Shown piece by piece: positions 34,533 to 60,683 of a stretch of 64,000 bases of DNA (the first letter of the stretch is position 1; each line of letters begins with the position of its first letter). Both the position numbers and the translations under genes were made by a program. This DNA is from a virus (Duplodnaviria > Caudoviricetes): the IMG/VR virus record IMGVR_UViG_3300016662_000119, positions 270-64,269 of that record; one strand, written 5' to 3'. Below the pieces are notes generated by a model, which was not told the DNA's origin, ran no database searches, and saw nothing but the letters and a program-made list of their open reading frames with translations.

Positions 34533-34533
34533 C

Positions 34534-41851: not shown

Positions 41852-41907
41852 TTCCCACCGCCAATACCACGCGTGTTACCATTCCGCCAACTTAAATTGG
41901 AGGAAGA

Positions 41908-42573
41908 ATGGCGCTCAAGCATAAAATATGGATGATTGCAATCGGCGCCATAGCTGTCCTCGCCCTTTGTGGATGGCTTATTTACACCCGAATTGAAACC
42001 AAGGATTGGGCTGCTTGGGTGCAGGCGGTTGGTTCCATTGCGGCAATATTTTTCGCGGTTGTGCTCACCTGGTATCAGGGCGAGGCATCCCTCGAACGCG
42101 AGCGGATTAAAGAACAGGATGATGTGAGGGGATTGCTGCTTAGCATTCGAGACGAGCTCAGCGTCAGTATCGAAATGGCTCAGCAGATGGTAGGGAACGA
42201 GCTCGAACGAACTCAGCGAGGAACAGCTTTTTGCTTTAGTTTCCCCGTGCAGGAAGACCCGTTTAATATATTTAACAGCATTGCAAATCGCTTGCCCCTT
42301 ATTAAGGACGAAGTTTTGCGATTGCAAATTGTAAGGACGTACGGCGTAGCGAAGGGAGCTATCGGCACTTTTCGCTTTAACAATGAGCTTATTGTCAAAC
42401 TTGAATGGGCTTGGAGGAAGGCTCGGAAAAGCCACGCCCATAGCGACAAAATTGAGGCCGAGTTGATTGATGTACAGATGATGGAGTATGGCGACGCGGT
42501 GCGAATGCACTACGCTCAAGTCAAGTTTGAGATCGAAGAATTGATGTCCCTGTTGCGCGAAAGAGGATTGTAG
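41908..42573 (+). CDS. Membrane moron, WxQAxGS family copy 1
   Basis: Two N-terminal TM helices, DWAAWVQAVGSIAAI, then a helical C-terminal domain. Antisense to the operon. Confidence 0.8.
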   Translation: MALKHKIWMIAIGAIAVLALCGWLIYTRIETKDWAAWVQAVGSIAAIFFAVVLTWYQGEASLERERIKEQDDVRGLLLSIRDELSVSIEMAQQMVGNELERTQRGTAFCFSFPVQEDPFNIFNSIANRLPLIKDEVLRLQIVRTYGVAKGAIGTFRFNNELIVKLEWAWRKARKSHAHSDKIEAELIDVQMMEYGDAVRMHYAQVKFEIEELMSLLRERGL

Positions 42574-42584
42574 GCAGTTCATTG

Positions 42585-43010
42585 TCAATCCTCCATCGCG
42601 CGCTTGATGCCAGTGGCGTCGAGGCCGGCAGCCTTGCAACCCAGGCGCGTGGCGTAGAAGTAGGTCATGTCGCCGTCGGCGCGTCCGGCCGTGGCCAAGC
42701 CAGCGGCCACCAGGCGCTGCATGGCCTCGTGCTGCTGGCCGCTACCAGCGGCAAAGTAGTTGCGCCAGCCCCACTTGGACTTCGGATAGTGCTGCACGGC
42801 GCCCAGCATGTGATGCAGCTTGGCGAAGTCGCCGGGCAGGGTCGCGGCACGAACGGCGGCCAGCGCGCAGGCGGCGCATTTTCCTTGCTGGGCCAGCTGC
42901 TTGACGGTGCTGGCTTTGCCGCAGGCACAGACTTTGCGGATCAGCGAATATGCGGACGCGAACTGATTTGCGATATGCGCACGTTCGCTTCTTGCCAAGT
43001 CGTACATCAT
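42585..43010 (-). CDS. Phage hypothetical protein with CxC/CxxC motifs
   Basis: 141 aa. KVCACGK...KCAAC...WRNYF. Confidence 0.65.
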   Translation of the reverse strand: MMYDLARSERAHIANQFASAYSLIRKVCACGKASTVKQLAQQGKCAACALAAVRAATLPGDFAKLHHMLGAVQHYPKSKWGWRNYFAAGSGQQHEAMQRLVAAGLATAGRADGDMTYFYATRLGCKAAGLDATGIKRAMED

Positions 43011-43042
43011 GATAGGATCCCCTCTTTAAATTTGGAGACAAA

Positions 43043-43468
43043 ATGGAAAACAAAGACAATCCAAACGGCATTCAGCGCCCCTTCAAGATGGATCAGATGT
43101 CTAGCTGGTTCGCTGATGGCGATGGATTTCGCGGGCGAGTCTCCGCTCGCGCTAGTGATGTCACGTGCGCAGTCAAGCGCAGCAGCCAAGACGAGGCTAT
43201 GGCGGATTCCGCCGCTCTCATGCACGCGCTGGAGTGGGCAGAAAAAAATGAACTTGTCGTATCGCATTCGATCAATGGGAAAAGAGTTGCGCATACCATG
43301 ATTTTTGCAATCGACGGCAAGTGGTATGCCACGTATCGAGTGGTTGAGGATCGGCAGCCCGTCATAGACTGGACTCGCTTCGAACTGCCGCCCCATGCCA
43401 GCAACGACTCCGACCGCAGTAAGGCGGTCGATAACGAAATCACGCGCCAACTGAATATATTGCGATAA
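43043..43468 (+). CDS. Antisense moron, unknown function
   Basis: GGAG RBS, 141 aa, convergent with the C5 methylase. Confidence 0.65.
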   Translation: MENKDNPNGIQRPFKMDQMSSWFADGDGFRGRVSARASDVTCAVKRSSQDEAMADSAALMHALEWAEKNELVVSHSINGKRVAHTMIFAIDGKWYATYRVVEDRQPVIDWTRFELPPHASNDSDRSKAVDNEITRQLNILR

Positions 43469-43470
43469 GT

Positions 43471-45417
43471 TCATGCCAACCTCGCAATTTCGCGCTCATG
43501 CACTAAGTTGGCGCGCATAGCGACATCAATGCGGTGGCCGAGCCAAGCCACATTTGACACTGCCCAGCTGTTGCCGATAGCCTTGTAGCGCGGGCCGTCG
43601 GCTGCTGCGCGCGCAACCTGGTCGCGTGTCATCACGCCGCCGCGTATAAGGTATTTGATCCAGTCCTGGTCGAGCTTTTCAGGCCGGATCGTGCGACCGA
43701 ACGGAATGAGGGTGTAGTCGTCAGGAAAATCCTGCAGGCGCTCGCATTCGCGGGGCGTGAGACGGCGGACGGCCATACCGACCAGTGCTATGGGCATGCC
43801 TTGTCCTGGCTTGCCCCCACCAGTGGACAACGCACCAGTGCGACTGCCATCGCCACCTTCGAGGCGGATTTCTGCGCGGCTGTTCTCAGCGAAGGCCGCC
43901 ACAATCGGCTGGCCGAGCCCAGTACCATCTTCACTTGCGTCGAAGCCTTCGGCCTTGAGGGTGTGCGTGACGCCACCGGTAATGCACACGGCGAGGCTCG
44001 GGCCCAACGCAGAATCACTTCCATCAGGCTGCTTGCCGTAGCTGCTGGTTAGCGCACCAGCTACTTCCCGGGAGCCGATTGTCTGGCACACGGCCTGCGC
44101 CTGCGGGCTGGAGCTGCCCAAAGCGCCGAACACCTCGGTACTGCTGATCGTGTTCTGGCGGGCGTCGAAGGCGATAGCCGGCGGGCTGCCGGCGTTGGCA
44201 TGGCTGCCGGCGTGGTTGCCAGCGCGCAGCGTCGGCGACAGGTCGACGCAAGCGTCACCGCCATAGTCCTTGCTGCTGAATGCGATGGGCGCCAGCGCAA
44301 CGCCGTGCTGCGAGCCGTTATCTAGTGTGTACATCGGCGCGCCAGCGTCACCGACGCCCAGGCCATTTTGATCCTTGCCGCGCGTAGCGTTCTGGATCGG
44401 GTATGCTGCCATTGGAATCAGCATGCCAGCCTCGGCATCTTGCTGTGTGGCGCTGCCAGAAGCCTTACCGTGCGCCTGCAGCGTGCCGGCGATCAGCGTG
44501 TCCAGACCATCACCGCGCGGGCGCTGGACGCTGCGGGCCACCGGAGCTTCTACGGCAGCACCGAAAGCAATGTCTTGCCCGTCGCTCTGTCGTGCTCCGC
44601 CAATATCCTCGGTACCAACTGGCTGCAGCCCTCCGCCGAGTTCGAAGTCTGCGCCGAGTCCGCCACCGCCTGTAGTGCGCGAGCTAATTGTTCCGGTAAC
44701 GTCTTGCCCCGTTTGACGGCTCGGCGGAGAATCCCGGCGCACGCCGTCGAACTCAAAAAGTACCTGTGCGGGATCGAACCCTGCTCCAGCACTTGCGATA
44801 ACGAACACACGGCGGCGGCGTTGGGCCACTCCGAAATATTGGGCGTCGAGGGTCCGCCACGCGACTGTTCGCGCGGGGCCATACACACAACCAGCGTACG
44901 CCCACTTACACCCTGGCGGCTCGATTGGATCATCTTCACCGGCAAGTCCAGCAAGGAAGCAGCCGAAGGCATTGTCTTTTGTGGAGAGGACTCCGGGGAC
45001 GTTTTCCCATAAGACAACGGCTGGAAGAAGTCCAGCTGCAGCGCGTCGTGCGTCAATTTCATCTGCAATCTCACAAAAAACAAGGGAAAGGTTGCCGCGT
45101 TCGTCGTCGAGCGAATTGCGCAGGCCGGCAATCGAGAACGCTTGGCACGGCGTGCCGCCGCAAAAAACGTCCGGCGCAGGCACGAAGCCGTCTCGGACCA
45201 GGGCAGCAACCTTGGTCATGTCGCCCAGGTTCGGCACATCCGGATAGTGGTGTGCCAGCACGGCACAAGGGAATGGCTCGATCTCGGCCAACCAGGCTGC
45301 GCGCCAGCCAAGAGGCCCCCAGGCGACGCTGGCAGCCTCAAGGCCGCTGCATACAGAGCCGAAGGTAATGGGCATAGTGAAGGCGTCGCTCTTCATGCTA
45401 AGATTCCTTTCGAGCAA
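43471..45417 (-). CDS. dcm: DNA cytosine-C5 methyltransferase
   Basis: Motifs I (FGSVCSG), IV (GGTPCQAFS), VI (ENVPG), VIII (QRRRRVF), IX (RRLTPRECERLQDFP) and X (YKAIGNS), with a long variable region. Confidence 0.92.
   Translation of the reverse strand: MLERNLSMKSDAFTMPITFGSVCSGLEAASVAWGPLGWRAAWLAEIEPFPCAVLAHHYPDVPNLGDMTKVAALVRDGFVPAPDVFCGGTPCQAFSIAGLRNSLDDERGNLSLVFCEIADEIDARRAAAGLLPAVVLWENVPGVLSTKDNAFGCFLAGLAGEDDPIEPPGCKWAYAGCVYGPARTVAWRTLDAQYFGVAQRRRRVFVIASAGAGFDPAQVLFEFDGVRRDSPPSRQTGQDVTGTISSRTTGGGGLGADFELGGGLQPVGTEDIGGARQSDGQDIAFGAAVEAPVARSVQRPRGDGLDTLIAGTLQAHGKASGSATQQDAEAGMLIPMAAYPIQNATRGKDQNGLGVGDAGAPMYTLDNGSQHGVALAPIAFSSKDYGGDACVDLSPTLRAGNHAGSHANAGSPPAIAFDARQNTISSTEVFGALGSSSPQAQAVCQTIGSREVAGALTSSYGKQPDGSDSALGPSLAVCITGGVTHTLKAEGFDASEDGTGLGQPIVAAFAENSRAEIRLEGGDGSRTGALSTGGGKPGQGMPIALVGMAVRRLTPRECERLQDFPDDYTLIPFGRTIRPEKLDQDWIKYLIRGGVMTRDQVARAAADGPRYKAIGNSWAVSNVAWLGHRIDVAMRANLVHEREIARLA
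44550..45062 (-). CDS. Alternate-frame ORF nested in the methylase (M.EcoHK31I beta-like)
   Basis: 170 aa from MKLTHDALQLDFF, containing SEWPNAAAVCSLSQVLEQGSIPHRYFLSSTACAGILRRAVKRGKTLPEQL. Confidence 0.6.
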   Translation of the reverse strand: MKLTHDALQLDFFQPLSYGKTSPESSPQKTMPSAASLLDLPVKMIQSSRQGVSGRTLVVCMAPREQSRGGPSTPNISEWPNAAAVCSLSQVLEQGSIPHRYFLSSTACAGILRRAVKRGKTLPEQLARALQAVADSAQTSNSAEGCSQLVPRILAEHDRATGKTLLSVLP

Positions 45418-45425
45418 TTTTTGGC

Positions 45426-46037
45426 ATGCGCATGAAATATCCCTACCTCACGCTCGCACTTCTGGTGTTTTTTTGCGTAGTCGACATCGTCATACTGGGA
45501 AATCACTTTGAGCTCACGAAATCCGATTGGTCGGGCTGGGTCCAAGCAATCGGTTCTATCGCTGCATTGGGGGTAGCGATATTTGTAATGAGTAGGCAAA
45601 ATAGACATGCTGCACAGTTGCTTATCGATGCCGATAAGCGCGCCCTGCTGCGAAGAGCGGATGCCGTTGGCGCGGTCATGGATCGCGCCCACACGCAGTT
45701 GCCAACTTTCTGTCAAATGATCAATGTGTCGATTGCCATGTCGGATGAAAGACTGATTCGGGCTTGCATGTCCACAGCGACGTTCGGAACGGCGGAGCTC
45801 CAAGTAGCAATTCGCGCAATTCCAGCGCACGAACTTGGTTCGTATGAAATGGTAAGTGGACTCTATAGAACGATAGAGGTATTGAGCGTCTTTGAAACCA
45901 TGGTGGGAAGGTGGTTGCAGGACGCTCAACTCCCAGCGCCCATCACGATCCTTGCATTTCTGACGGTAACCAACAACAGTTGCGAAGAAGCCAAAGCGAT
46001 TTTCTTGCGTGGAGTCGATAAACTCCGAACGGAGTAA
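45426..46037 (+). CDS. Membrane moron, WxQAxGS family copy 2
   Basis: Two TM helices, DWSGWVQAIGSIAAL. Antisense. Confidence 0.8.
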   Translation: MRMKYPYLTLALLVFFCVVDIVILGNHFELTKSDWSGWVQAIGSIAALGVAIFVMSRQNRHAAQLLIDADKRALLRRADAVGAVMDRAHTQLPTFCQMINVSIAMSDERLIRACMSTATFGTAELQVAIRAIPAHELGSYEMVSGLYRTIEVLSVFETMVGRWLQDAQLPAPITILAFLTVTNNSCEEAKAIFLRGVDKLRTE

Positions 46038-46069
46038 AAAGCAACTTTGGATACCCTCCAGATCACGCT

Positions 46070-46474
46070 TCATGGGCGCACCTCGGCAGTCGGCCGGCGA
46101 ACGACCACGACAGGCATTGCGCCCACCGTGCCACGAAAGTGCGGCGTGGCCACCTGGCCAGGTTTTTCTGGCTCGGCACCGAGCAGCGCCGCGCGCGAGG
46201 CGTCTTTCAGCACGTAGCGAATGCCCGCCAGGCGCACATTGCCCTGGATGAAGCGCGAGAAAATCATGCGCAGGCGGTGTTCCATGCCGGCCTCTTCTAT
46301 ATCGAAGCCCGCGCGCTCGCAGATTTGGTAAAAGGTGCCTGGTCCGGCCAGCATCGCCTGCAGCAGCGCATATGAGCGGGAACCCTGCTTCGGGAGCGTG
46401 ACGCCAGAATGGCGGCGCTTTGTCTTATTTACGCTAAAAGTCGGGCGCGGGCTATCGTCAGTTTGGCCAGTCAC
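46070..46474 (-). CDS. Hypothetical protein
   Basis: ORF coupled to the KilA-N gene stop (GTGA). The start is uncertain. Confidence 0.55.
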   Translation of the reverse strand: MTGQTDDSPRPTFSVNKTKRRHSGVTLPKQGSRSYALLQAMLAGPGTFYQICERAGFDIEEAGMEHRLRMIFSRFIQGNVRLAGIRYVLKDASRAALLGAEPEKPGQVATPHFRGTVGAMPVVVVRRPTAEVRP

Positions 46475-47220
46475 AATGCCACCTCCGCCAGGACCGAGTC
46501 GCGCCATTTCACTTGCTGGATGGGCGTGCCGCTGGCATGTGCCTTGCCGGTATCCATCACGTAGGCATGCTCCCTGCCCTTCTCGGTTGGCACCCAGTGC
46601 CCGGCGATGTTCTCTTGCAGGCCAGCCTGCACCAGCAGTTGGTTGAACGCCTTGGCACTCTTAACGAAGCGGCTGCCCAGTTCCGTAGGCGTGTAGTAGG
46701 TCTCCTGGCTGGGCGTGGCCAAGTGCGTGCGTTCCATCAACTGCAGCATGTTCACGCCGGTCAGCGCGGCCGTACCCTGGTTCGCGCTGATAGCCGCAGC
46801 GTTCTTGTCGAGCCCGATCAGGCGCGCAATGCCGAAGATGGCGCGGAATTCCTTGGCAGGCGAGACTGCGCTACGCGCGGGCGCGCCGGTCGGCGCTTGG
46901 CCGGTGGCCACGGCGTCAAAGGTGCGGATGACTTCCAGGTGGAACTTGGCGCTGATCCACATGGCATATGCGTAGACCAGTTCCTTGCAGACGTATGTGC
47001 CTCCCGTCCGGCCCTCGGATTTAACTACAGGAATTCCCGTAGTTTCTAATTCTGCAACAAGCTCCTTGGTTTGCTGATTAATCAGCCACGCGGATGGCTC
47101 GTGACGGCGTTCGCCGCCGGCCGCTTGGTGCAGGTCGTTCAAGCGGAAACGGCCAGCCTGATCTGTTGCAATGGCCGTATTCGCAATGCTGATGCTTTTC
47201 TGTTGTACAATTTGGCTCAT
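46471..47220 (-). CDS. KilA-N domain DNA-binding/antirepressor-like protein
   Basis: RFRLNDLHQAAGG...GGTYVCKELVYAYAMWISAKFHLEVIRTFD. Confidence 0.88.
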   Translation of the reverse strand: MSQIVQQKSISIANTAIATDQAGRFRLNDLHQAAGGERRHEPSAWLINQQTKELVAELETTGIPVVKSEGRTGGTYVCKELVYAYAMWISAKFHLEVIRTFDAVATGQAPTGAPARSAVSPAKEFRAIFGIARLIGLDKNAAAISANQGTAALTGVNMLQLMERTHLATPSQETYYTPTELGSRFVKSAKAFNQLLVQAGLQENIAGHWVPTEKGREHAYVMDTGKAHASGTPIQQVKWRDSVLAEVAL

Positions 47221-47443
47221 AAATTCTCTCAAAGATTTATAGCGTTTCAAGGAAGCCCGCCTGCAAGCGGGCTTTTTTATTGGCCGGCGCGCAGCTCTTC
47301 AAGCATCGCTTCGTAGTGCTGACGCGTCCGGACGTGACCGGGATCGACAGGCAGCGCGCCATCGTGCGACTCTTGCTGGGAGTGACCGCCCTGCTCGCCC
47401 GGCGCTGCGCTTGTGGCGGGCGCCGGCTGCGTGGTCGACCAGG

Positions 47444-47706
47444 TCAAGCCGGCACCCCGGCGCGCGCGATGAGTTTGAGCTCACGGATCGACACGTCGAA
47501 CACCTCGTGCATGCGGATCAGCAGCGAGGCGCCAATTGGCAGGCGGCCGTGGCGAATCTTCGAGATCACGGGCGGCGCCACTTCCAATGCGCGGGCCAGG
47601 CCGCGTCGTTCTTCGGGCCCTTGGCCAGCAGCATGTCGAGCAATTCGTTGTTGCCGTGGGCGTCGTCCAGCGAGCGGTACGGCTTAATTGCAGTTGTTTG
47701 CGTCAT
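47444..47706 (-). pseudogene. Small HTH protein with a one-base frameshift
   Basis: MTQTT...KNDAA in one frame continues LARALEVAPPVISKIRHGRLPIGASLLIRMHEVF in the next. Total length is 263 nt (3n-1). Confidence 0.7.
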
Positions 47707-47782
47707 GTCATATTCCTAATTGATGGTGATTAAAGTTGCCGATTCCGGCCGTGTAATGCTGTAGCTGTCGGGTGCGGGTCCG

Positions 47783-48058
47783 TTATGGAGGCTCGCGCCG
47801 CGGCACCTCGTATTTCTTCGCCACCCTGTCGGTGGCATCGCGCCATTTCTGGCGCGCTTCCTTGTGCGCGGCCTTCGCCGCGCTCTCGCCCTCCCCGTCC
47901 TTGGCGCCCTGCAGGTCTTTCTCGGCCTGGCGGTAGATCATCGAACGCTGGAAGATCAGCTCCTTCTCCTCGGCTGTGACCTCGGCTTGTTTATTCAATA
48001 GCTGCCTCCATGCCGTTAAACCCGCATCCGCACGACGCGCGGGACGACGCCAAAGCAC
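47783..48058 (-). CDS. Hypothetical protein
   Basis: Helical 91 aa ORF in the early right operon. The start is uncertain. Confidence 0.5.
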   Translation of the reverse strand: MLWRRPARRADAGLTAWRQLLNKQAEVTAEEKELIFQRSMIYRQAEKDLQGAKDGEGESAAKAAHKEARQKWRDATDRVAKKYEVPRREPP

Positions 48059-48306
48059 GGGCGCGGTGCCGGCAAAACTTGGGCCCTGTTATTTACTGAT
48101 TTGGGCCTAGCTCCGCTGGAAAACGGCGGCGTATCATTCCGTTTCGGCCTGGCGTCCAGGTGATTGCGGATGATTACGATCGTGCATTCGTTCAGCACGT
48201 CGCTGACGGTCTTGCGCATCGCAGTGCATGCGGCTTGCAAGGCATCCTTGTTGTCGTCAGTGATGTAGCCCTTGACTAGCGCGGTACGTTTTTGCTTCTG
48301 TTTCAT
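48016..48306 (-). CDS. Small basic regulator (CII position, RHH-like)
   Basis: GGAG RBS. KRTALVKGYITDDNKDALQAACTAMRKTVSDVLNE. Confidence 0.55.
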   Translation of the reverse strand: MKQKQKRTALVKGYITDDNKDALQAACTAMRKTVSDVLNECTIVIIRNHLDARPKRNDTPPFSSGARPKSVNNRAQVLPAPRPCFGVVPRVVRMRV

Positions 48307-48510
48307 GGTTTTCTCCTGGTGGTCGGTGTTACAGGGTTTGGGTGCAGCGAAATGCAAGTTGGTACTTGGTGCTGTTTTACGGTGGGCGCTCGCTGGCTGG
48401 CAATGCGCACTCCTCAACCGGCACGCCGCAAGGCAACTGGTGCGGTTCGAGCAGCGGGATGCGCACGAAGTCGTCCGCCGGGCGCGGCGGGGAAATTGGG
48501 ATCAGGCGGA

Positions 48511-48834
48511 TCATGGCTTCGCACCTACGTCGATCCCGACGGCGGCTCGCGCAGGCACGGTATCGAAAATGGCATTGGTAGTCGACGGCTGGCGGCCGGC
48601 GTGACCTGGATCGGCAACAACTAGCTCGGGCCAAATTTTGTGCCAGTCATCAGGGCGAAGCTCTCGACGCGTTACCTTGCCGCCCGTCGTCCCCTCAATG
48701 GCTGGGCAGTGCCGAATCGCGACTGGGCGGATGTTTTCGATCCACTGATGCAGAAGCGCTGGGGAAACGTTAATCGCACGAGCGAATTCAGCTTTCTTCG
48801 TGCCTGACTCGATGAGGTAGTTTTTGAGGTTCAT
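48511..48834 (-). CDS. cro: Cro/YdaS-like repressor
   Basis: KKAEFARAINVSPALLHQW...CPAIEGTTGGKVTRRELRPDDWHKIWPEL. Divergent from cI. Confidence 0.85.
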   Translation of the reverse strand: MNLKNYLIESGTKKAEFARAINVSPALLHQWIENIRPVAIRHCPAIEGTTGGKVTRRELRPDDWHKIWPELVVADPGHAGRQPSTTNAIFDTVPARAAVGIDVGAKP

Positions 48835-48844
48835 GCCGCAATAA

Positions 48845-48904
48845 TAGCATTGCTAGTATTAAAGTCAATAGCATAGCTCGTTGCGATCTTAAATAGCATC
48901 GCTA
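48845..48904. promoter_or_regulatory. OR operator: three TAGCA-N-TGCTA-type palindromes
   Basis: TAGCATTGCTA at 48845, TAGCATAGCTC at 48869 and TAGCATCGCTA at 48894 (24-25 bp pitch). Confidence 0.85.
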
Positions 48905-48914
48905 TACTTCGCAA

Positions 48915-49679
48915 ATGAAAAAAGAACCTAAGGCACTAGAAGATTGGCAGGTGGAAGACGCCCGGCGCCTCAAGGCGCTTTTCGATGCGCGCGAGCCGAA
49001 GATCTCACAGGCTGAATTTGGTGCGCAATACGACATTGGCTCGCAAGGCATGGTGTGGCAGTACGTGGCGGCACGCCGCCCGCTGAACATCAAGGCTGCC
49101 ACGGCTTTCGCTCGTGGCCTGGGCGTGACTGTCGAAGAAATAAGCCCACGAATCGCAAGCGAAATCGCTTCCGCAGCGTCGCATACTAGTTCGGCCGCTG
49201 GCCCTTTTGAAATGCAGGATGCCCGGCCAGTAACTGGTGACGATGACATGGCTCCTCCCATGGTTGCCATTCGGATGGTTCCTGAGCACCTGAGGGCAGG
49301 CATCACCGGTTTTGAAACCGATCATCTTTATGAGGACGGCGGCCACTTGCACGTTCCGCGCCAGTGGCTCGAAGAGAACGACCTCTCGCCGGATCAGCTG
49401 CGCGCCGTGAAGATCAAAGGCGACAGCATGGTACCGATGATGTATGCAGGCGATGTTGCAGTAGTAAATATCAAAGACAAAAGCCGTGTGAGCGGCGGAG
49501 TCTTTGCCTTGAACTTCAAGGGGGAATCGGTGGTCAAGCGGCTTCGATATGATCGTCGCGAATGGTATCTAACCTCTGAAAACCCCGAATTTCAGCATGA
49601 GCCATGCAGGACCGGGGACTGCAATGTCATCGGCCGCGTCGTGCGTTTCGAGCCGCGCAACTTTAAAGATAGGCTATAG
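48915..49679 (+). CDS. cI: CI repressor (HTH plus S24 autopeptidase)
   Basis: N-terminal HTH (ISQAEFGAQYDIGSQGMVWQY), AG cleavage site, and catalytic GDSM and VVKRL. Confidence 0.92.
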   Translation: MKKEPKALEDWQVEDARRLKALFDAREPKISQAEFGAQYDIGSQGMVWQYVAARRPLNIKAATAFARGLGVTVEEISPRIASEIASAASHTSSAAGPFEMQDARPVTGDDDMAPPMVAIRMVPEHLRAGITGFETDHLYEDGGHLHVPRQWLEENDLSPDQLRAVKIKGDSMVPMMYAGDVAVVNIKDKSRVSGGVFALNFKGESVVKRLRYDRREWYLTSENPEFQHEPCRTGDCNVIGRVVRFEPRNFKDRL

Positions 49680-50012
49680 ATGAAGAAAATCATTTTCACG
49701 TGCATCGCTGTCAGTATAGGGGGTACTGCATTCGCTGCCCCCAACGACGCATACTGCTTAAAAATGGGGAAGATGGCTCAATCTGCTGCGCAGGTGATGG
49801 AGGCAGGCGGTACCGAAGAGATGCTGAAGAATTTGCGCATAGCGAGTGCAGCAAAAAACAAGCAAGTGAAAAGTGAAGAGCAGCTGAAGATCGACCAGCA
49901 AAACGAGTCCATGATGGATACTATTGCCAGCTTTGTTTTCACAACCAAACAGGAGTCAAAGACAGCGCGCCTAGTTGTCTATAAAAAGTGCCTTTCCGGC
50001 GACTTTAATTGA
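49680..50012 (+). CDS. Secreted Cys-pair protein B (paralog of 17689..18027)
   Basis: Starts directly after the cI stop. Signal peptide (AFA-AP) and YCL...MEAGGTE...ARLVVYKKCLSGDF. Confidence 0.8.
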   Translation: MKKIIFTCIAVSIGGTAFAAPNDAYCLKMGKMAQSAAQVMEAGGTEEMLKNLRIASAAKNKQVKSEEQLKIDQQNESMMDTIASFVFTTKQESKTARLVVYKKCLSGDFN

Positions 50013-52444: not shown

Positions 52445-52464
52445 GTTCGAATTAAATCACCGTC

Positions 52465-52487
52465 AGCTCGCCTCGCGCGGGCTTTTT
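52465..52487 (+). terminator. Terminator after the kinase operon
   Basis: AGCTCGCCTCGCGCGGGCTTTTT. Confidence 0.65.
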
Positions 52488-52545
52488 AGGTTCATCGCAT
52501 TTCCAATCACTTCCATCTTAGCAATATTCGACGCATAATGCATTT

Positions 52546-52824
52546 ATGCAACTATGCGCCGCCATCATCAATATCAAGCAAATTCAGTTGGCCGTGGTCC
52601 AGATCGAGCCGGAGCATACCTGGCCGTCCACTGGCCCGGCCGCCCTGCTCCATGCGCAACGGTTCTTCCCTACCTTGCCTATTTTGCTGCTGTCGCCGCG
52701 TGTCGGCGGCTTCTCGCGCAGCTACTCCACGTTCGACATCGGTCCGCTGATCAGCCAGATCAACGCTGACGAAATCGAATGGCAGACCCACCAGCGCCCA
52801 CCGCCTCCCGAACTACCCTTCTAA
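52546..52824 (+). CDS. Hypothetical protein
   Basis: 92 aa followed by a hairpin and T-tract at about 52837-52862. Confidence 0.55.
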   Translation: MQLCAAIINIKQIQLAVVQIEPEHTWPSTGPAALLHAQRFFPTLPILLLSPRVGGFSRSYSTFDIGPLISQINADEIEWQTHQRPPPPELPF

Positions 52825-52900
52825 GCACGCATACCAGCCTCGACGATTCGGGGCTTTTTTTCGCCTATCGCTGGCCGTTGTTGAAATTTCGCATTTTTAC

Positions 52901-52936
52901 TAGCAATGCTATTGCGCTATTAAAATAGCTTTGCTA
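52901..52936. promoter_or_regulatory. OL operator: two palindromes matching OR
   Basis: TAGCAATGCTA at 52901 and TAGCTTTGCTA at 52926. Confidence 0.85.
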
Positions 52937-52972
52937 TTATCCATTCATCGAAAGCAAACACAGGAGTACGAC

Positions 52973-53062
52973 ATGTCCCCAGCAGAGCTCGCAGCACTCG
53001 AAGCGGTCCTCATCGCCCACGGCGAAGTGATCCCGGCAATCGTCCTTCCAGCGCGCGGCTAA
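52973..53062 (+). CDS. 29-aa first peptide of the pL operon
   Basis: AGGAG RBS. MSPAELAALEAVLIAHGEVIPAIVLPARG. Confidence 0.45.
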   Translation: MSPAELAALEAVLIAHGEVIPAIVLPARG

Positions 53063-53067
53063 TCACC

Positions 53068-53301
53068 ATGAGCGCCCGAGACGCCATCCCCGGCCTTTTC
53101 ACCGCTCCGCCGGCGCGCGCAACGCTGCGCAAGTACAACGTATCGATCAAGTTTGAGGACGGGAATTTTGAAGCAACAGCCTGGGCAGGAAGCCCGAATC
53201 AAGCGCATGAGCTGGCGCGAGTGGATGCGCGCATGGCGTCGTGCAGCGGCACATTTTATGGCCGCGAGCTGGGCTGGACTGCGGAACTGGCAAAGGTTTA
53301 G
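53068..53301 (+). CDS. Hypothetical protein
   Basis: 77 aa in the pL operon. Confidence 0.55.
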   Translation: MSARDAIPGLFTAPPARATLRKYNVSIKFEDGNFEATAWAGSPNQAHELARVDARMASCSGTFYGRELGWTAELAKV

Positions 53302-53446
53302 CGGTCGCCCGCCGCCGTAGGCAAGGCGGGACAGGCCGGCGGGCCGGATAAATGCCCTGTGGGATCAGCATGCCCCGATTGATCTTCGTGAGGATCGGGC
53401 GCCCGGGGAAGCCCGGCGCCACAACCAACCTTGAAGGAAATACAGC

Positions 53447-53626
53447 ATGTCGAATTTCAAAAAAGATCAGAAGGTGAATGTGAAGGGCACGAAAACCGAT
53501 CCAGCGGCGCGCCCGGGCAAGTTCGTGCAGACGCATCCGGGCGTGCGTGGTGACTTCCTGGAAGTGCTGCTGGACGGCTCGACGCAAAGCCAGCGCTTCC
53601 GCCCTTCGCAAGTGTCGGCAGCCTGA
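53447..53626 (+). CDS. 59-aa hypothetical protein (SH3-like beta pattern)
   Basis: Hand-translated with a GAAGGA RBS: MSNFKKDQKVNVKGTKTDPAARPGKFVQTHPGVRGDFLEVLLDGSTQSQRFRPSQVSAA. Confidence 0.55.
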   Translation: MSNFKKDQKVNVKGTKTDPAARPGKFVQTHPGVRGDFLEVLLDGSTQSQRFRPSQVSAA

Positions 53627-53862
53627 TTTTAAGCACGGGCTAGTCGCCCTGGCCCGTCTCGCCGGCGAAACCGGCGGCCAAGACATGACCATCGAATCTG
53701 CCGGGGTGATTGCCGAGCAGGTACGGCCAGATTAATCACCTGGTGTCGGCGTCCCATGAGGGATTCTCGATGGTCATGTGTTGGCGGCCCACCAGCCCCA
53801 GGAATCACACGCCCGACGGATTGACCGGGTCGCCAAAAGCCAATTAACTAGAGGAGCAGGAC

Positions 53863-54003
53863 ATGAGCTACATGATCACCATCCGCACCGGCCCGCGCGC
53901 CGAAGATATCGCGCAATTCGCCGCCATCGGCAACTTGGCCGCGCTGATTGATGCCGCCTACGACGGCGGCGCCCTCGGCGTGACTGCGATGGTGCGGCCA
54001 TGA
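53863..54003 (+). CDS. 46-aa hypothetical protein
   Basis: GAGGAG RBS. MSYMITIRTGPRAEDIAQFAAIG...; ATGA coupling to the next gene. Confidence 0.55.
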   Translation: MSYMITIRTGPRAEDIAQFAAIGNLAALIDAAYDGGALGVTAMVRP

Positions 54004-54233
54004 TCGCCCTCCTCCACCGCCTCCTGGCCGCCCACCGTCACTACCAAGCACAGCACCAGCACCGCATGAACAAGATGCGCCTGGCCGGCGTGCGCCGCGA
54101 GTTGGCCGGCCTCGAAGAAATGCGCAAGGAACTGATCACCGCGCAAATCGAAGCACTGATCGACCTGGACGCATCCGCCGCGCGCGTGCAGCGCCTGGGC
54201 CGCGCCCACCGGGAGGCGCAGTGGACGTCGTAA
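54000..54233 (+). CDS. Hypothetical coiled-coil protein
   Basis: 77 aa ORF. Confidence 0.55.
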   Translation: MIALLHRLLAAHRHYQAQHQHRMNKMRLAGVRRELAGLEEMRKELITAQIEALIDLDASAARVQRLGRAHREAQWTS

Positions 54234-54357
54234 GTCAAGCCGTGATGGACGTGGCCAGCCAGGCCCTGCGCAACTGGCATGCCGGCCACGCCATCGTCTA
54301 CGCCGTCCGCCTGGCGCTGTTGAAGGCAGAAATCATAAAACTAACAAGGAAAAAGTC

Positions 54358-55479
54358 ATGAACGCAGTTACGCAAGAAAGCCGCGCCGCGATGCAAGTTT
54401 CGCAATACGACCAGGGCGAGCTGCCAGTCGTGGCCACCAGCAGCGCCGCCCTGATCCTCGACAGCGCAAGCATGGACAGCATGATGCGCCTGGCCGACAT
54501 TATGGCCAAGGGCCGCGCCACCGTCCCGGAACACCTGCGCGGCAATGCTGCCGACTGTGCGGCTGTGGTGATGCAGGCCATCCAGTGGCGCATGAATCCG
54601 TTCGCTGTCGCGCAGAAAACCCACCTGGTGAACGGCGCCCTGGGTTATGAGGCGCAGCTGGTCAATGCGGTGATCCAGTCGAGCGGCGTTACCGAAGACC
54701 GTTTCAACTACGAATGGTACGGCCCATGGGAAAAGATCATCGGCAAGACCAAAGTTATCACCATGCCGGCCAAGGGCGACAAGAAGGAATACCAGTTCCG
54801 TGTTCCCGATTACGGCATGGAAGCAGAGGCGGGCCTGGGCGTGCGCGTTTCCTCGACGCTCAAGGGCGAGATCGAACCGCGCGTGCTTGATCTGCTGCTG
54901 GTCCAGGCCAGCGTGCGCAACTCCCCGCTGTGGGCCAGTGACCCCAAGCAGCAGCTTGCCTATCTGGCAGTCAAACGCTGGTCGCGCCTGTATGCGCCGG
55001 ACGTCATCCTGGGCGTCTACACCCCCGACGAGCTGGACGAAGGCAACCGCGAGGCGCGCGATATTACGCCGGATGCCGGAGGCATGTGCGCCCCAGCGCC
55101 AGCCCAGGCATCGCAAGCATTGATCGACGCGGCCGAAGCTGCTGCAGGCAAAGGTGTAGCAGCCTATCAAAAATTCTGGACTGAAACCGGCGTGCCAAAT
55201 CGGAAAGCCCTGGCTGCCGATCACGAGAGCCTGAAAGCAAAAGCTGTGGCTGCCGATCAAAGTCGTACGGTTGATGCGGCGCCGGCGTCCAGTGCAACGC
55301 CTCCCCCGCTCTCGCCTGAAATGGAAGAGTTGGCTGCCGATCTTGGCGCAGTCGCTGACGAGGGTCTGGAAGCATTTGTTGGCGCTTGGGATCGACTCTC
55401 CAAGACCACGCAGGACAAGCTGGCCGGCGCCTACCCGGCAATGAAGGCACGGGCAGAAGCTGTCGAGGTGGCCAAATGA
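54358..55479 (+). CDS. recT: RecT-family single-strand annealing recombinase
   Basis: VPEHLRGNAADC.AVVMQAIQWRMNPFAVAQKTHLVNGALGYEAQLVNAVI...PKQQLAYLAVKRWSRLYAPDVILGVY. Confidence 0.85.
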   Translation: MNAVTQESRAAMQVSQYDQGELPVVATSSAALILDSASMDSMMRLADIMAKGRATVPEHLRGNAADCAAVVMQAIQWRMNPFAVAQKTHLVNGALGYEAQLVNAVIQSSGVTEDRFNYEWYGPWEKIIGKTKVITMPAKGDKKEYQFRVPDYGMEAEAGLGVRVSSTLKGEIEPRVLDLLLVQASVRNSPLWASDPKQQLAYLAVKRWSRLYAPDVILGVYTPDELDEGNREARDITPDAGGMCAPAPAQASQALIDAAEAAAGKGVAAYQKFWTETGVPNRKALAADHESLKAKAVAADQSRTVDAAPASSATPPPLSPEMEELAADLGAVADEGLEAFVGAWDRLSKTTQDKLAGAYPAMKARAEAVEVAK

Positions 55480-56123
55480 TCATCCTTACCTGCGAGCAGG
55501 GAAGCCCCGAATGGCATGCCGCCCGGGCTGGGGTCATCACCGCCAGCATGTTCGTAGTGGCGCGCGCCAAGCTGAAATCGGGTGCGAACAAAGGCCAGCC
55601 CACCTCGGCAGCCAATGATTACGCCTTCCGCCTGGCCATCGAGCGCATCAGCGGCATGCCGCTCGACGAAGGATTCGAAACCTATGCCATGCGACGCGGC
55701 CACGACCTTGAGCCAGCCGCACGCCATGAGCACGAAGTGCAAAGCGGTCACGTTGTCGAGCGCGCTGGCTTTGTCCTTACCGAGGATCGATTGTTCGGCG
55801 CCAGCGCGGACGGCCTGATTGGCAACGATGGCGGCAGCGAATACAAGTGCCTTATCTCGCCAGAACGCCTCCGCGACGTTCTGATAAATGGCGATTTTAG
55901 CGAGTTCATAGACCAGGTACAGGGCTGCATGTGGATCACGGGCCGCCGCTGGTGGGATTTCTGCCTGTACTGCCCTGCTCTGGCTCCAGTCGGCAAAGAA
56001 CTGTGGTTCCGCCGCGTCGAGCGCGACGACGCCTACATCGACGCAATGGTGCTCGACCTGGTCGATTTTGAAAAACTGGTTACTGAAAACGAAACAATTT
56101 TACGAATGAAGGAGGCAGCATGA
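55476..56123 (+). CDS. YqaJ/lambda-exonuclease-like protein
   Basis: ATG at 55476. QGSPEWHAARAGVITAS...RGHDLEP...GASADGL...EYKC...QVQGCMW. Confidence 0.88.
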   Translation: MIILTCEQGSPEWHAARAGVITASMFVVARAKLKSGANKGQPTSAANDYAFRLAIERISGMPLDEGFETYAMRRGHDLEPAARHEHEVQSGHVVERAGFVLTEDRLFGASADGLIGNDGGSEYKCLISPERLRDVLINGDFSEFIDQVQGCMWITGRRWWDFCLYCPALAPVGKELWFRRVERDDAYIDAMVLDLVDFEKLVTENETILRMKEAA

Positions 56124-57391
56124 TCACCGAAACCACCCAGGCCGCGCCGGCCGCCACCGCCCTCACCCTGCCGCAGCGCGCGGCCGTCGCACTAGGCGCC
56201 GTGGACTACGAGGCAAAAATCAAGGAGCAGGTTGCGGCCTCGACCGACATCACCGCCGTCATCGATCCCGCCGGCCGCGAGCAGGCACACCGCATCGGAA
56301 TGAACCTGCTGAAACTGCGCACCGGCATCAAGGCCGTCGGCGAGGCCGCACGCAAAGATGCGACCGACTTCAGCAAGGCGGTAATTGCCAAGGAAAAAGA
56401 CCTGATTGCGCTGATCACGCCAGAAGAAAATCGCGTGTTCGAGCTGCGCGACGCCTACGACACCAAGGTTGAGGCCGAGAAGCAAGCTGCGATTGCGAAG
56501 GAGCGCGAGCGCATTGCCGCGATCCAGGCTGATATCGCGGCAATCCATGATGCGCCGCTGGAACTGGTGGGCAAGTCCGCTGCCGACATTCAGGCGGCTG
56601 CAGCTACCGTGGCAGCCATCGTCGTAGATAAGGAGCGCTTTGCCGAGTTCGAGAAGGACGCTGCCAAGGTCGTTGCCGAAGTGAGCGCCAAGCTGGCCAG
56701 CCTGCATGCCGCAGCAGTGGCGAACGAAGAAGAAGCCGCCCGCATTGCCGCCGAGCGCGCCGAGTTGGCGCAACTGCGCGAAGCGGCTGCCGAGGCCCGG
56801 CGCATCGCCCAGGTGGAAGCTGACCGCATCGCTGCCCAGCGCCAGGCCGAAGACGATCGCCGCGCGGCGCTGGCCGCCGAGCAGGAAGCAGAGGCGCTGC
56901 GCCAACGCGAAGCCCATGCCGCTGAATTGAAAAAGCAGGCAGACGCCCAAGCAGAGCAGAACCGGCTGGAGCAAGCGGAAATCGCACGCCAGCGCCAGGA
57001 ACTGCTGGAAATGCAGGCCACAGCAGCCGAAGCCGCACGGCTGGCCCAGGTCGAAGCCGACCACCTGGCCAATGATGCTGCGCAAGCCGAGCAGGCCGCG
57101 CAGCTCGCCGTGGCGCGCGCCGCCGAGCAAGTCGCCCAGGTTGCCGCGCCTGCGCCCTCCGCTCCTATCGGCATCCGCCGCGCGCCCGCAGCCATCGCGC
57201 CGGCCCCGAGCCGCCCAGCGCCAGCACCTGACCTGCTCGACGCCGCTGCCGATGACCTCTACCCATCCGACAGCGACATCCTCGATGTGATGTTCGAGCA
57301 GTTCGGCCTGACGGCGGCCGAGGCCATCGACCGCCTGGCCAAGTTCGACTTTGCCACCGCGCGCGCCGGCCTGATCGCCGAAGCCGCATAA
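56120..57391 (+). CDS. Long coiled-coil phage protein
   Basis: 423 aa Ala/Glu/Gln-rich heptads with a Pro-rich tail. Confidence 0.75.
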   Translation: MITETTQAAPAATALTLPQRAAVALGAVDYEAKIKEQVAASTDITAVIDPAGREQAHRIGMNLLKLRTGIKAVGEAARKDATDFSKAVIAKEKDLIALITPEENRVFELRDAYDTKVEAEKQAAIAKERERIAAIQADIAAIHDAPLELVGKSAADIQAAAATVAAIVVDKERFAEFEKDAAKVVAEVSAKLASLHAAAVANEEEAARIAAERAELAQLREAAAEARRIAQVEADRIAAQRQAEDDRRAALAAEQEAEALRQREAHAAELKKQADAQAEQNRLEQAEIARQRQELLEMQATAAEAARLAQVEADHLANDAAQAEQAAQLAVARAAEQVAQVAAPAPSAPIGIRRAPAAIAPAPSRPAPAPDLLDAAADDLYPSDSDILDVMFEQFGLTAAEAIDRLAKFDFATARAGLIAEAA

Positions 57392-57422
57392 ACACCGCCC
57401 CGCCCACCACCTGGAGAAACCA

Positions 57423-58133
57423 ATGAACACAGCAGTCGAAGCACCACAAATCACCCTGCAGGCCATCCAATCCTCGCAGATTGCCGCCATCGGCCACTGC
57501 CCGGCGACCGAAACGCTGGCCGTGCAGTTCTTCCGCAAGGGCGCGCCGGCGGACGTGTACCACTACGCCAACGTCACGGCCGCCGAATATGCAGCCTTCG
57601 CCGGCGCCGAATCCATCGGCAAGCACTTCTACGCGCACATCAAGCCGCATGCCGACAAGCACCCGTATACGAACATGGGCACGCCGGCCGTCGAGCTGGC
57701 GCCGGTCAAGCTGAGCAAGGAACTGCTGGCCGGGCTGCTGACGGGCCGCGAATACGGTAGCGAAATGGTCAAGGAAGAGGAGCAGCAGGCCAAGGCGGCC
57801 GGACTGATCGTGATCTTCGGCGCCAGCGACGACCTGATGGAGTTCCGTGGCTTCGTGGACGAAGAGCGCGGCGCTCCTACCATCGCACTGCTCGACGCCA
57901 AGGGCTTGTTGCCATTCCGCGAGGATATCCAGCACGACGACGATGCACTCAAGGACTATTTCGCCCGGGTGCCGCAGGTGCGCGCCGTGGATGCCCTGTG
58001 GGCCAAGGAGGACGGTTACAGCTGGACCTACCACACCGACGTGCCGCACGCCACCTTTGAAATCGTGGAAGACGGCGAACCGTACTGCCGCGGCATCGTG
58101 ATCGACGTGGCCGACCTGGGCGGTGCAGCGTGA
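57423..58133 (+). CDS. KTSC-domain fusion protein
   Basis: QSSQIAAIGH...LAVQF...YHYANV...Y.AF..AESIGKHF, followed by an acidic C-terminal domain. Confidence 0.75.
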   Translation: MNTAVEAPQITLQAIQSSQIAAIGHCPATETLAVQFFRKGAPADVYHYANVTAAEYAAFAGAESIGKHFYAHIKPHADKHPYTNMGTPAVELAPVKLSKELLAGLLTGREYGSEMVKEEEQQAKAAGLIVIFGASDDLMEFRGFVDEERGAPTIALLDAKGLLPFREDIQHDDDALKDYFARVPQVRAVDALWAKEDGYSWTYHTDVPHATFEIVEDGEPYCRGIVIDVADLGGAA

Positions 58134-58390
58134 CCGGCCGCCCGGCCCGCAAGTCCGCCGCGCAGCTGCAAGCGGTCTGTGACAAGTTCAATGATTCGCA
58201 CCAGGTCGGCGCGGCCGTCAGCGTCAAACTGGACGGTGGCGAGGTACGCGAGACGATTACCACCAGCGAGGCCCAAGTGCTCAGCGGGCACACCGCAGTC
58301 ATCTGGCTCAAGGGCGTCAGCGGCTGCTACCTACTGGATCGCGTCGCGCCGTTGGCTCTGGCCAGCACGACTGCTGGATCGCCGCCATGA
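58130..58390 (+). CDS. Hypothetical protein
   Basis: 86 aa with 4-nt overlaps. Confidence 0.65.
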   Translation: MTGRPARKSAAQLQAVCDKFNDSHQVGAAVSVKLDGGEVRETITTSEAQVLSGHTAVIWLKGVSGCYLLDRVAPLALASTTAGSPP

Positions 58391-58800
58391 CAAAGCAAAC
58401 CTACTTCCTTGTGCACGACGAGGCGCGGCGCCGGGCAGTTGAATTTGCAAAGACCGCGCCGCCCGGCTGGATGGTGGTGTTTTCCGAGCCGAAAAAGAAG
58501 CGCGCCCAAGAAGAAAAGTATCACGCCATGATCGGCGAGATCGCCAAGCAGGTCGAGCACATCGGGCGCAAGTGGGATGCGGATGACATGAAGCGGCTGC
58601 TGGTGGACGAGTTTGCCGACGAAATGCGCCTTGCCGGCATGCCGCTGCACCACGACGGGCGCGTGACGCCCAGCTTCGACGGGCGCCGGATCGTGCAGCT
58701 GGGCGTCCAGACCAGCGACTTCTACGTTAAGGAAGCCGCGCAGTTCATTGAATTTTTGTATGCCTTCGGTGCCGCGCGCGGCGTCGTGTTCTCAGAATAA
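58387..58800 (+). CDS. ninB: NinB/Orf-family recombination mediator
   Basis: FSEPKKKRAQEEKYHAMIGEIAKQV...WD..DMKRLL...TSDFYVKEAAQFIEFLYAFGA. Confidence 0.8.
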   Translation: MTKQTYFLVHDEARRRAVEFAKTAPPGWMVVFSEPKKKRAQEEKYHAMIGEIAKQVEHIGRKWDADDMKRLLVDEFADEMRLAGMPLHHDGRVTPSFDGRRIVQLGVQTSDFYVKEAAQFIEFLYAFGAARGVVFSE

Positions 58801-58809
58801 GGAAGCGCC

Positions 58810-60030
58810 ATGTTTTTCAAGAATCTTCAAATCTACCGCCTGCCCGCAAACTGGCCCATGAGCGCCCCGGAGCTGAACAGCATGCTTGAGCGCCAGGCCT
58901 TCACGCCCGCCACAAGCATGGACTTGGTGCGCCAAGGCTGGGCCCCGCCGCGCGCCGCCGGCACGCCGCTGGTGCACGCCGTCGGCGGCCAGTTCCTGCT
59001 GCAGCTGAAAACCGAGAAGAAGCTGCTGCCGTCGACCGTGATCAACCAGGTGGCCGCCGCCCGCGCGCTGGAAATGGAAGAAGCCCAGGGCTTCGCGCCC
59101 GGCAAGAAGGCCATGAAAGAACTGAAGGAGCGCGTCACCGACGAGCTGCTGCCGCGCGCATTCACCATTCTCAGCACCACGGCCGCGTGGATCGACCCAA
59201 TCAACGGTTGGCTGGTGGTGGACGCGGCCAGCCCGGCCAAGGCGGACGAAGTGATCAAGCTGCTGCTCAAATCCGTCGACAAGCTGCCGCTGGAAAGCCT
59301 GCGCGTCATGCGCTCGCCAGTGGCCATGATGACGGAATGGCTGCAAGCAGACGAATCCCCGGCCGGCTTCACGGTCGACCAGGACGCGATCATGCGCGCC
59401 ACAGGCGAAAGCAAGGCCCAGGTGGCGTACAAGCGCCACACGCTGGAAGCGGACGATATCCGCCGCCACATCGCCGCCGGCAAGCAGTGCACCCGCTTAG
59501 CCATGACCTGGAGCGACAAAATCAGCTTCGTGCTGGACGAGAGCCTGGCCATCAAGTCCGTCAAGCCGCTGGAGATCATCAAGGAAAGCGCCACGCGCAA
59601 CGACGACGAGCGCTTCGACAGCGATTTCGCCCTGATGACGGGCGAGCTGGCCAAGATGCTGACCGATCTGGTCGAGGCGCTGGGCGGCGAAGCCGAGGTA
59701 GATGCGCGGCCGCCGGGCCCTGCCGTTGACGCGGCGCCGGCCAAAGGCCATGAACCAGTGCGCGAACAACGCGTGGTGCTGGAGTTAAACGGCCAGGCGC
59801 CCGGCACCGTCCCGCCCGGCGACGGCAGCGCGAGCGATCCGCTGTACGACCAGGCCGTCGAGGTCGTACGCACACATCGCCGCGCATCTGTATCACTGGT
59901 GCAGCGCCACTTACGTGTCGGCTTCAACCGGGCCGGCAACCTGCTGGAAGCAATGGAGACGCTGGGCGTGGTGAGCGGCATGGCATCGAACGGCAATCGC
60001 ACGGTGCTGAAAAATCAGGGCACGAATTAG
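58810..60030 (+). CDS. rdgC: RdgC recombination-associated protein fused to an FtsK-gamma-like domain
   Basis: [11 protein letters not shown]...EKKLLP...[20 protein letters not shown]...FDSDFALM. C-terminus [11 protein letters not shown]...[26 protein letters not shown]. Confidence 0.9.
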
Positions 60031-60683
60031 CTGTCGCGAGTACTAGCGATTGTCACTTTAAGACGAGCCAACTGTACAGAAAGCGCTTCCAACTGCCGCT
60101 GAAGTTTTGGTCCTAGATGAGCCAGCGCGACTGCCACATCACCCGAGGGCGCTTCATTCATTGGAACTCTCTCAGCAAAGGTACTGTTTTTATTAAGGGC
60201 AGCAAGAAATGCACGTATCTCCGCATACGTTTCAACAATTTCATTTCGGAACACATCATTTTCAATTTTCCCAATTTCAAGAGCGCAAGCCTCATAAATT
60301 GGGAAGCTAGCAAGGATTTCAGGGTAAACCATTTGATAGCGTCCACTAAAAACCATGCCTGGATTGTTGCTCATGTCTGACTGTATAACTGACAACATTT
60401 TTTCGAAAGCGGAAATTTCGGAGCCGACTGCCTTTAGCAAATTACCCAGCTCAGCGGAACGTGCTTGTTTAGCTCGATATGTGGCATCACGGAACTGGCT
60501 GTTCATTATATAAACCGCACCCACAATCGCCCCGAACGAACCAATCGCTTGCGCCCATCCTGCAGCCTCGGATGTGCCAAAACCTTTGTAGCGCACCGCA
60601 ATGCCAAATCCTGCGATCAGGAATGCAAGAAATATTGTCACCATAACACTGACAGCTAATTTTTTTCTGGTTAATTTTTTCAT
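60027..60683 (-). CDS. Membrane moron, WxQAxGS family copy 3
   Basis: Two TM helices, [15 protein letters not shown]. Antisense to the pL operon and AT-rich. Confidence 0.8.

Follow-up and report, generated by a model that had tools for sequence, protein, structure and literature searches.

The stretch of DNA analysed here, the window, comprises 64,000 nucleotides and is nearly the whole of a 64,269-bp IMG/VR provirus (record IMGVR_UViG_3300016662_000119; Duplodnaviria, Caudoviricetes). PHROG and Pfam scans of the window revealed a mirrored lambdoid gene layout, and its closest homologues bear names that suggest Janthinobacterium as the host. Our subject is a set of three genes in this provirus that encode small membrane proteins and are placed backwards within its early operons:

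41908–42573, + strand: copy 1, 221 aa; class-A C-terminal domain
45432–46037, + strand: copy 2, 201 aa from the ATG at 45432; class-B C-terminal domain with an IPxHELGSY motif
60027–60683, − strand: copy 3, 218 aa; class-A C-terminal domain

Three backward paralogues in one prophage

An earlier note, made from the sequence alone, had described these open reading frames (ORFs) as antisense membrane proteins that share a W-x-Q-A-[VI]-G-S motif in the second transmembrane (TM) helix. The three ORFs lie at the coordinates and on the strands claimed, with lengths of 221, 203 and 218 aa, and the TM2 strings quoted for them are exact. The copy 2 ORF opens at 45426 (203 aa); ATG 45432 is the likelier start, because all homologues begin with MKYPY or MKK. 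Pairwise BLASTP gave E values of 4e-8 for copies 1 and 3, 1e-6 for copies 1 and 2, and 3e-9 for copies 2 and 3, and by this measure the three ORFs are true paralogues. Their antisense placement was likewise described correctly: copies 1 and 2 are on the + strand in an early-right operon that runs on the − strand, and copy 3 is on the − strand in an early-left operon that runs on the + strand. The three copies have accumulated in a single prophage, as had been stated; related proviruses carry one to three copies each, and one Janthinobacterium prophage holds three in its early-right operon alone.

The TM2 motif marks a widespread family

An exhaustive profile search recovered 3,363 cluster representatives at E ≤ 1e-3, of which 758 remained at E ≤ 1e-10; among the 150 matches listed, almost all lengths were ~170–270 aa. 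Close relatives of copies 1, 2 and 3 numbered 17, 49 and 1, respectively, in homologue searches, and came mostly from Janthinobacterium. The W, Q, A, G and S of the motif, two later Ala residues and a Gln ~18 residues on are invariant or nearly so. W-x-Q-A-x-G-S is therefore the mark of a true family, of ~210-aa inner-membrane proteins, and not a generic TM pattern. In a third family member of the Janthinobacterium sp. SUN128 prophage (L085:7097–7741), W-V-Q-A-L-S-S replaces the G-S form, and the gene has one operon-strand stop. A 446-aa relative (L171:5001–6341) matches the family profile twice and looks like a tandem fusion of two family modules; it runs against an ERF/YqaJ recombination operon, flanked by SSB and RdgC.

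The family had been proposed to be undescribed, and it is without a Pfam, NCBIfam or PADLOC family. Scans against these collections took in the three copies and sets of 27, 137 and 36 relatives, and returned TM matches at chance level only. All three copies matched phrog_33632, a PHROG of unknown function, at E 1e-6 to 2e-4; these matches span the TM hairpin region only (protein residues ~11–79, profile positions 25–88 of 208). DUF4760 (PF15956), to which the family is linked by the UniRef name of one homologue and by Atlas scores of 0.77–0.78, gave no match at E ≤ 10 in a direct search and none in the family scans. One homologue matched SLATT_4 and SLATT_1 at E 0.08–0.13, far short of the cut-offs, no Pfam SLATT family was listed for the 137 members, and Saf_2TM reached a chance-level E of 0.0024 in one of the 137. 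The PADLOC model LeoBC (PDLC03841) matched 6 of the 36 class-A members weakly; against copy 3 it reached E 5e-6 over profile positions 458–557 of 601 only. An identity with Eleos LeoBC was rejected, the match being partial, without the GTPase domain and without a LeoA partner.

A constant membrane hairpin carries a diverging helix bundle

AlphaFold models computed with family alignments reached predicted local distance difference test (pLDDT) scores of 95.3 for copy 2 and 90.0 for copy 1. Both copies follow one predicted plan, consisting of TM1, a short loop, a single helix of ~70 residues and a C-terminal helical bundle, in agreement with the two N-terminal TM helices and helical C-terminal domain read from the sequence earlier. 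The first part of the ~70-residue helix is TM2, and its continuation serves as helix 1 of the C-terminal bundle. In copy 1, TM1 spans ~residues 2–28, and TM2 starts at W37 and extends as one helix to residue 101. The TM2 motif reads Q-A-x-G-S-x-x-A-x-x-x-A, the stalk helix continues from it without a break, and the conserved Trp ends a ~12-residue periplasmic loop. Charge counts over 128 members gave 2.2 K+R versus 0.7 D+E for the N-terminus and 0.9 K+R versus 1.6 D+E for the loop. By these counts the protein is an N-in hairpin, with its N-terminus and bundle in the cytoplasm and its loop in the periplasm.

The earlier note had held that copies 1 and 3 share a C-terminal domain and that copy 2 differs. 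This stands at the level of sequence, where the bundles fall into at least two classes, A (copies 1 and 3) and B (copy 2, with IPxHELGSY); it does not stand for the predicted architecture, which is the same in copies 1 and 2. To speak of a different C-terminal domain was an overstatement, in that copy 2, though of another sequence class, is predicted to have the same helix-bundle plan. hhalign of the copy 1 and copy 2 subfamily profiles aligns only the TM2/stalk region and so gives no support for homology between the two C-terminal classes. The broader proposal is sound: the family is real, its membrane module is constant and its cytoplasmic domains diverge fast. The terms oligomerisation module and pore were inferred from the small-xxx-small, polar character of the TM2 helix. 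Structure searches (Foldseek against PDB and BFVD, and VIA-align wide) returned nothing beyond four-helix bundles, generic or designed, and 4HB sensor domains, with fold-search Z scores of 10–14, the background level for helical bundles; a search of solved structures by sequence gave helix-bundle noise only.

The operon strand is kept open across copies 1 and 2

The earlier note overlooked stop-free, ATGA-coupled frames that run on the operon strand across copies 1 and 2 (bridge frames). The relevant features are:

39278–46507, − strand: early-right operon segment, stop/start-coupled frames in an unbroken chain
41848–42582, − strand: bridge ORF 1, in exact antisense codon register to copy 1; no family match
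45393–46073, − strand: bridge ORF 2, joined by ATGA to both the 145-aa gene upstream and the C5 methylase
43043–43468, + strand: a fourth backward gene, 141 aa, soluble-looking and publicly called, not a family member
43007–43474, − strand: operon-strand frame over the fourth backward gene, ATGA-coupled on either side

The frames follow one another as the 145-aa gene, bridge ORF 2, the C5 methylase, the 43007–43474 frame, a 141-aa gene, bridge ORF 1, HNH and a 134-aa gene, then the replication genes, and between 46507 and 41363 all junctions read ATGA or TGAcaATG. Bridge ORF 1 has a GGAGGA and an ATG 2 nt past the stop of its upstream gene, and its own stop forms an ATGA with the HNH start.

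No TTA, CTA or TCA codon occurs in copies 1 and 2, and the operon strand therefore stays open across them. Their own four-fold A usage predicts 9.1 (copy 1) and 11.0 (copy 2) stop-reading codons, by an estimate that overshoots about twofold (observed/expected 0.43–0.65). The arrangement is ambigrammatic, in that the reverse frame is open beyond what codon usage predicts; its ribosome-binding sites, ATGs and ATGA junctions no more than hint at its translation. Zero antisense stops were found in 31/83 genes of the IMG/VR set plus the window and in 23/64 of the genome set, 54/147 altogether; the distribution is zero-inflated, with, for example, 31 genes at zero versus 5 at one, and out of frame the TTA, CTA and TCA trinucleotides remain common in the family genes. 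For genes with at least five expected stops, 44/132 family genes were stop-free versus 27/219 flanking genes (Fisher p 4e-6, odds ratio 3.6). The stop of the bridge frame overlaps the start of an operon-strand ORF of at least 60 aa in 41/54 cases, 34 of which are ATGA; the same overlap occurred in 13/54 and 26/54 for the other two frames and in 14–19/68 among unbridged relatives. On the family tree, the zero/non-zero state changed at least 26 times versus 37 ± 2.8 with shuffled labels. As judged from these patterns, selection is on openness only, and it has acted repeatedly. For the 43007–43474 frame only 2.3 antisense stops are expected, so its openness is not significant alone and could be chance; the fourth backward gene beneath it has no relatives in IMG/VR.

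Copies 1 and 2 are fully overlapped by these open frames in exact antisense codon register. One might hold that the genuine genes are the operon-strand ORFs, with the membrane frames as their codon-bias shadows: both strands are open over the full length, the operon-strand frames have a ribosome-binding site, an ATG and ATGA junctions, and a public gene call at the copy 2 locus took the operon-strand frame (226 aa; at copy 1 it took the membrane protein). This is extremely improbable. In the membrane-protein frame, orthologues differ most at position 3 (0.51–0.71, versus 0.23–0.54 at position 1 and 0.15–0.42 at position 2), so that the first codon position of the opposite frame is the most variable; by this divergence the membrane-protein frame is the one under protein-level selection. 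Many relatives with 5–21 operon-strand stops keep the membrane protein, the AlphaFold models of the membrane proteins are confident, and the operon-strand products match no family. A shadow-ORF artefact in copies 1 and 2 was thus ruled out by the codon-position divergence and by the relatives with many operon-strand stops. A functional operon-strand protein, the sequence of which is not conserved, was rejected on its lack of family matches and on its first codon position, the most variable of the three, and also on the four-fold sites, which are saturated alike in bridged and unbridged pairs. The public call at copy 2 took a meaningless frame, and bridge frames can therefore mislead gene callers.

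Candidate promoters and possible leaderless transcripts

Backward position in lytic operons goes together with an extended −10 consensus match upstream of all three copies. The candidate elements are:

41874–41882, + strand: extended −10-like motif TGTTACCAT of copy 1, a consensus match only
41899–41904, + strand: Shine-Dalgarno sequence GGAGGA of copy 1
45396–45404, + strand: extended −10-like motif TGCTAAGAT of copy 2, a consensus match only
60690–60698, − strand: extended −10-like motif TGCTACAAT of copy 3, ending 6 nt before its ATG
43010–43018, + strand: extended −10-like motif TGATAGGAT of the fourth backward gene

Across the family, the extended −10 motif TGnTAnnnT occurs at most 70 nt upstream of 52/147 genes and in only 1–5 of ~140 control windows. 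The bases of TGCTAAGAT serve, on the opposite strand, as the methylase start codon and ATGA junction, with a Shine-Dalgarno sequence a few bases beyond, and in many relatives the motif bases likewise double as the junction ATGA and initiation codon of the operon gene that follows. The 6-nt distance of TGCTACAAT from the copy 3 ATG suggests a leaderless or near-leaderless mRNA; the same 6-nt spacing is frequent across the family, which points to leaderless transcripts there too. The divergent cro/cI region (48841–48859) likewise has extended −10 motifs back to back, with TGCTATTAT reading on the − strand and TGCTAGTAT reading on the + strand; a further TGCTATTAT, at 52932, is a possible early-left promoter. 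This phage seems to favour promoters of the extended −10 kind. A terminator scan of the window yielded nothing useful.

Backward placement across relatives

At 80 IMG/VR loci, 359/456 flanking gene calls, which are crude, were on the opposite strand, as were 227/349 at 64 loci from bacterial genomes. Backward placement is a trait of the family: in ~150 relatives the gene mostly runs against an early operon of a temperate phage. Independent annotation agrees: in Burkholderia phage vB_E438 the family gene is the sole + gene in a run of − genes, by the repressor, and in Janthinobacterium prophages it lies opposite YbcO, methylase and replication genes. At another locus it is found between SSB and RdgC. 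The arrangement has the form of a noncontiguous operon, a backward gene between coupled operon genes with its own candidate promoter (a consensus match), and genes antisense to prophage lytic genes have been described as typical accessory loci (PMC7067206). On a metagenomic contig, a distant 217-aa homologue of copy 1 lies just downstream of AbiEi/AbiEii and is co-directional with them (L086:2770–5654; L087); this neighbourhood is defence-island-like and outside an obvious operon, unlike the usual nesting.

The remaining layout of the window is as follows:

~2.5–35 kb, − strand: late and structural genes (PHROG/Pfam scans)
early-right operon, − strand: genes for YdaS-like cro, KilA-N regulator, C5 methylase, HNH and replication O-like
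48915–49679, + strand: CI
54358–64000, + strand: early-left operon with copy 3, comprising RecT, exonuclease, NinB, RdgC-FtsK-gamma, then integrase

The RdgC-FtsK-gamma gene upstream of copy 3 (58810–60030) is a fusion of a full RdgC domain and FtsK gamma (KOPS-binding); it is convergent with copy 3, and their stops overlap by 4 nt. The C5 methylase probably starts at ATG 45396, preceded by an AAGGAA Shine-Dalgarno sequence, and not at the TTG 45417 of the ORF list.

Comparison with known systems

The layout parallels that of lambda SieB (PF14163; 184 aa), a superinfection-exclusion or abortive-infection protein known also from P22, which like the family has two N-terminal TM helices and a cytoplasmic C-terminal domain. 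Lambda sieB (34482–35036, + strand) sits between N and ral, both on the − strand, as the sole + gene in the leftward pL operon. The family shares this arrangement of a ~190-aa protein with two N-terminal TMs encoded by a single antisense gene in a lambdoid early operon. sieB is expressed in the lysogen and is under antisense control (PMC12197685, PMC10883804), and control by antisense nesting is a feature of prophage immunity genes (PMC11087260, PMC12197685). The proteins are unrelated in sequence: PF14163 gave no match at E ≤ 1 for the three copies or at E ≤ 0.01 for 137 relatives, and hhalign of the family profile with lambda SieB returned a probability of 0.35%. The C-terminal domain of SieB does not resemble a helix bundle, and, unlike copies 1 and 2, lambda sieB has no operon-strand frame across it.

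In Tha/Ith of Staphylococcus aureus phage 80alpha, too, an antisense gene with a constitutive promoter is nested in an operon, making the lysogenic and lytic programmes mutually exclusive and balancing immunity against autoimmunity (PMC11087260). There, however, it is the inhibitor that runs backwards, with the immune gene in the cI operon; the proteins are unrelated to the family and no stop-free frame is reported. The two-helix membrane module with a variable cytoplasmic domain, and predicted triggered membrane action, likewise recalls the SLATT/Saf_2TM 2TM effectors; the family differs in its chance-level scores and in having no partner nucleotide cyclase or SAVED gene.

Among published cases, the bridge frames come closest to the ambigrammatic reverse ORF of Culex narnavirus 1, which is full-length, in exact antisense register and kept open by avoiding the same three codons (PMC8316113). 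That ORF is without homology to known proteins, and its translation itself is thought to matter (PMC8316113). Narnaviruses differ in being eukaryotic RNA viruses with one genome-length ORF, no operon and no stop/start coupling. Long antisense ORF pairs have also been reported in bacteria and in Pseudomonas phage Fc02 (PMC9936078), where olg1/olg2 and gene 10 share with our case an opposite-strand overlap in the lysis-lysogeny region of a temperate proteobacterial phage. In Fc02, lysogeny draws on one strand and lytic growth on the other, the products are active in exclusion, and Gp10 turns up in the insoluble fraction (PMC9936078). The Fc02 arrangement differs in adjoining the repressor and in that both products are functional proteins.

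A proposed function and its alternatives

Our best explanation is that these are exclusion or abortive-infection proteins expressed in the lysogen, a reading that we hold at an even balance of belief and doubt. Each gene would be transcribed in the lysogen from its own extended −10 promoter, and on induction of its own prophage head-on early transcription would silence it, by the logic of the noncontiguous operon of lambda/P22 sieB and Tha/Ith. The proteins would oligomerise through TM2; the cytoplasmic bundle would sense a product of the infecting phage, whereupon the membrane module would stop the infection in a SieB-like manner. Several diverged copies would broaden the range of phages covered. 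The bridge frames likely benefit the phage by keeping ribosomes on the early mRNA, which would couple translation and shield the transcript from Rho or RNases. Hints of defence come from the sieB-like position and architecture, from the one distant homologue by AbiEi/AbiEii and from the weak LeoBC match.

Several observations weigh against this proposal. The matches of the copies and their relatives include no recognised defence family, and the LeoBC model is promiscuous, matching 14/14 control genomes at E ≤ 1. Structurally, the bundle is of a generic up-down helical type, and the structure searches gave it no informative neighbour. Isolated phages are almost without the family: among the named phages, tblastn with four diverse members reached only three unannotated Burkholderia phages, and it found no member in Pseudomonas phage records. 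The promoters of the family genes are consensus matches only, and a scan for standard two-hexamer (−35/−10) promoters found none. As for the bridge frames, copy 3 has six operon-strand stop codons and hence none, ordinary flanking genes are also stop-free in 10–13% of cases, so that the enrichment in the family is only about threefold, and bridged and unbridged members are nested equally often (p 0.47).

A role for the phage or lysogen outside defence, in membrane physiology, lysis timing or the anchoring of a phage complex, would accommodate the generic fold, the lack of a defence family match and the one weak match of a member to a holin family (E 0.037). We think it unlikely, given that lysogen-expressed conflict genes typically run backwards in lytic operons, form fast-evolving paralogues and occur in several copies per prophage (PMC7067206). 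Alternatively, the proteins could block superinfecting DNA entry at the inner membrane, like P22 SieA or HK97 gp15, rather than sense a cytoplasmic product. SieA-type exclusion is a known prophage function (PMC10883804), and inner-membrane proteins expressed from the prophage with a conserved Trp at the periplasmic face would suit it. Only ~12 residues are periplasmic, however, and these are conserved; the variable part is cytoplasmic, which fits recognition of an intracellular target better than of the ejection apparatus. With the variable part cytoplasmic and the periplasmic loop tiny, intracellular sensing is therefore favoured, and a DNA-entry block appears quite improbable. The membrane hairpin with its polar helix, and an operon-strand transcript fully complementary to the gene, might also describe an addiction or toxin-like membrane module that stabilises the prophage and is checked by the antisense early transcript in the style of a type I toxin-antitoxin system; antisense RNA does control P22 sieB (PMC12197685). 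The early operons are repressed in the lysogen, though, leaving no antisense RNA while the gene is on, and type I toxins are much smaller. We give such a module very little credence.

Implications for prophage biology

The family comprises thousands of sequence clusters in alpha-, beta- and gammaproteobacterial prophages and has a confidently predicted fold, and it is nameless in Pfam, NCBIfam and PADLOC. Its backward position, own promoter motif, fast-evolving paralogues and sieB-like plan make it a concrete candidate prophage defence gene. Going further than exclusion as such, it is possible, though we lean towards doubting it, that the family represents a new and widespread single-gene class of abortive infection, in which a pore-forming or oligomerising hairpin is joined to a swappable sensor bundle, placed backwards and accompanied by bridge frames against polarity. 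Were this so, backward placement would be part of the mechanism, turning the gene on in the lysogen and off upon induction, and bridge frames would let phages carry backward cargo in coupled early operons without polarity. The codon choice that keeps the operon strand translatable shows how phages tolerate backward cargo, and bridge frames of this kind matter for genome annotation, for codon-usage studies and for the design of engineered phages.

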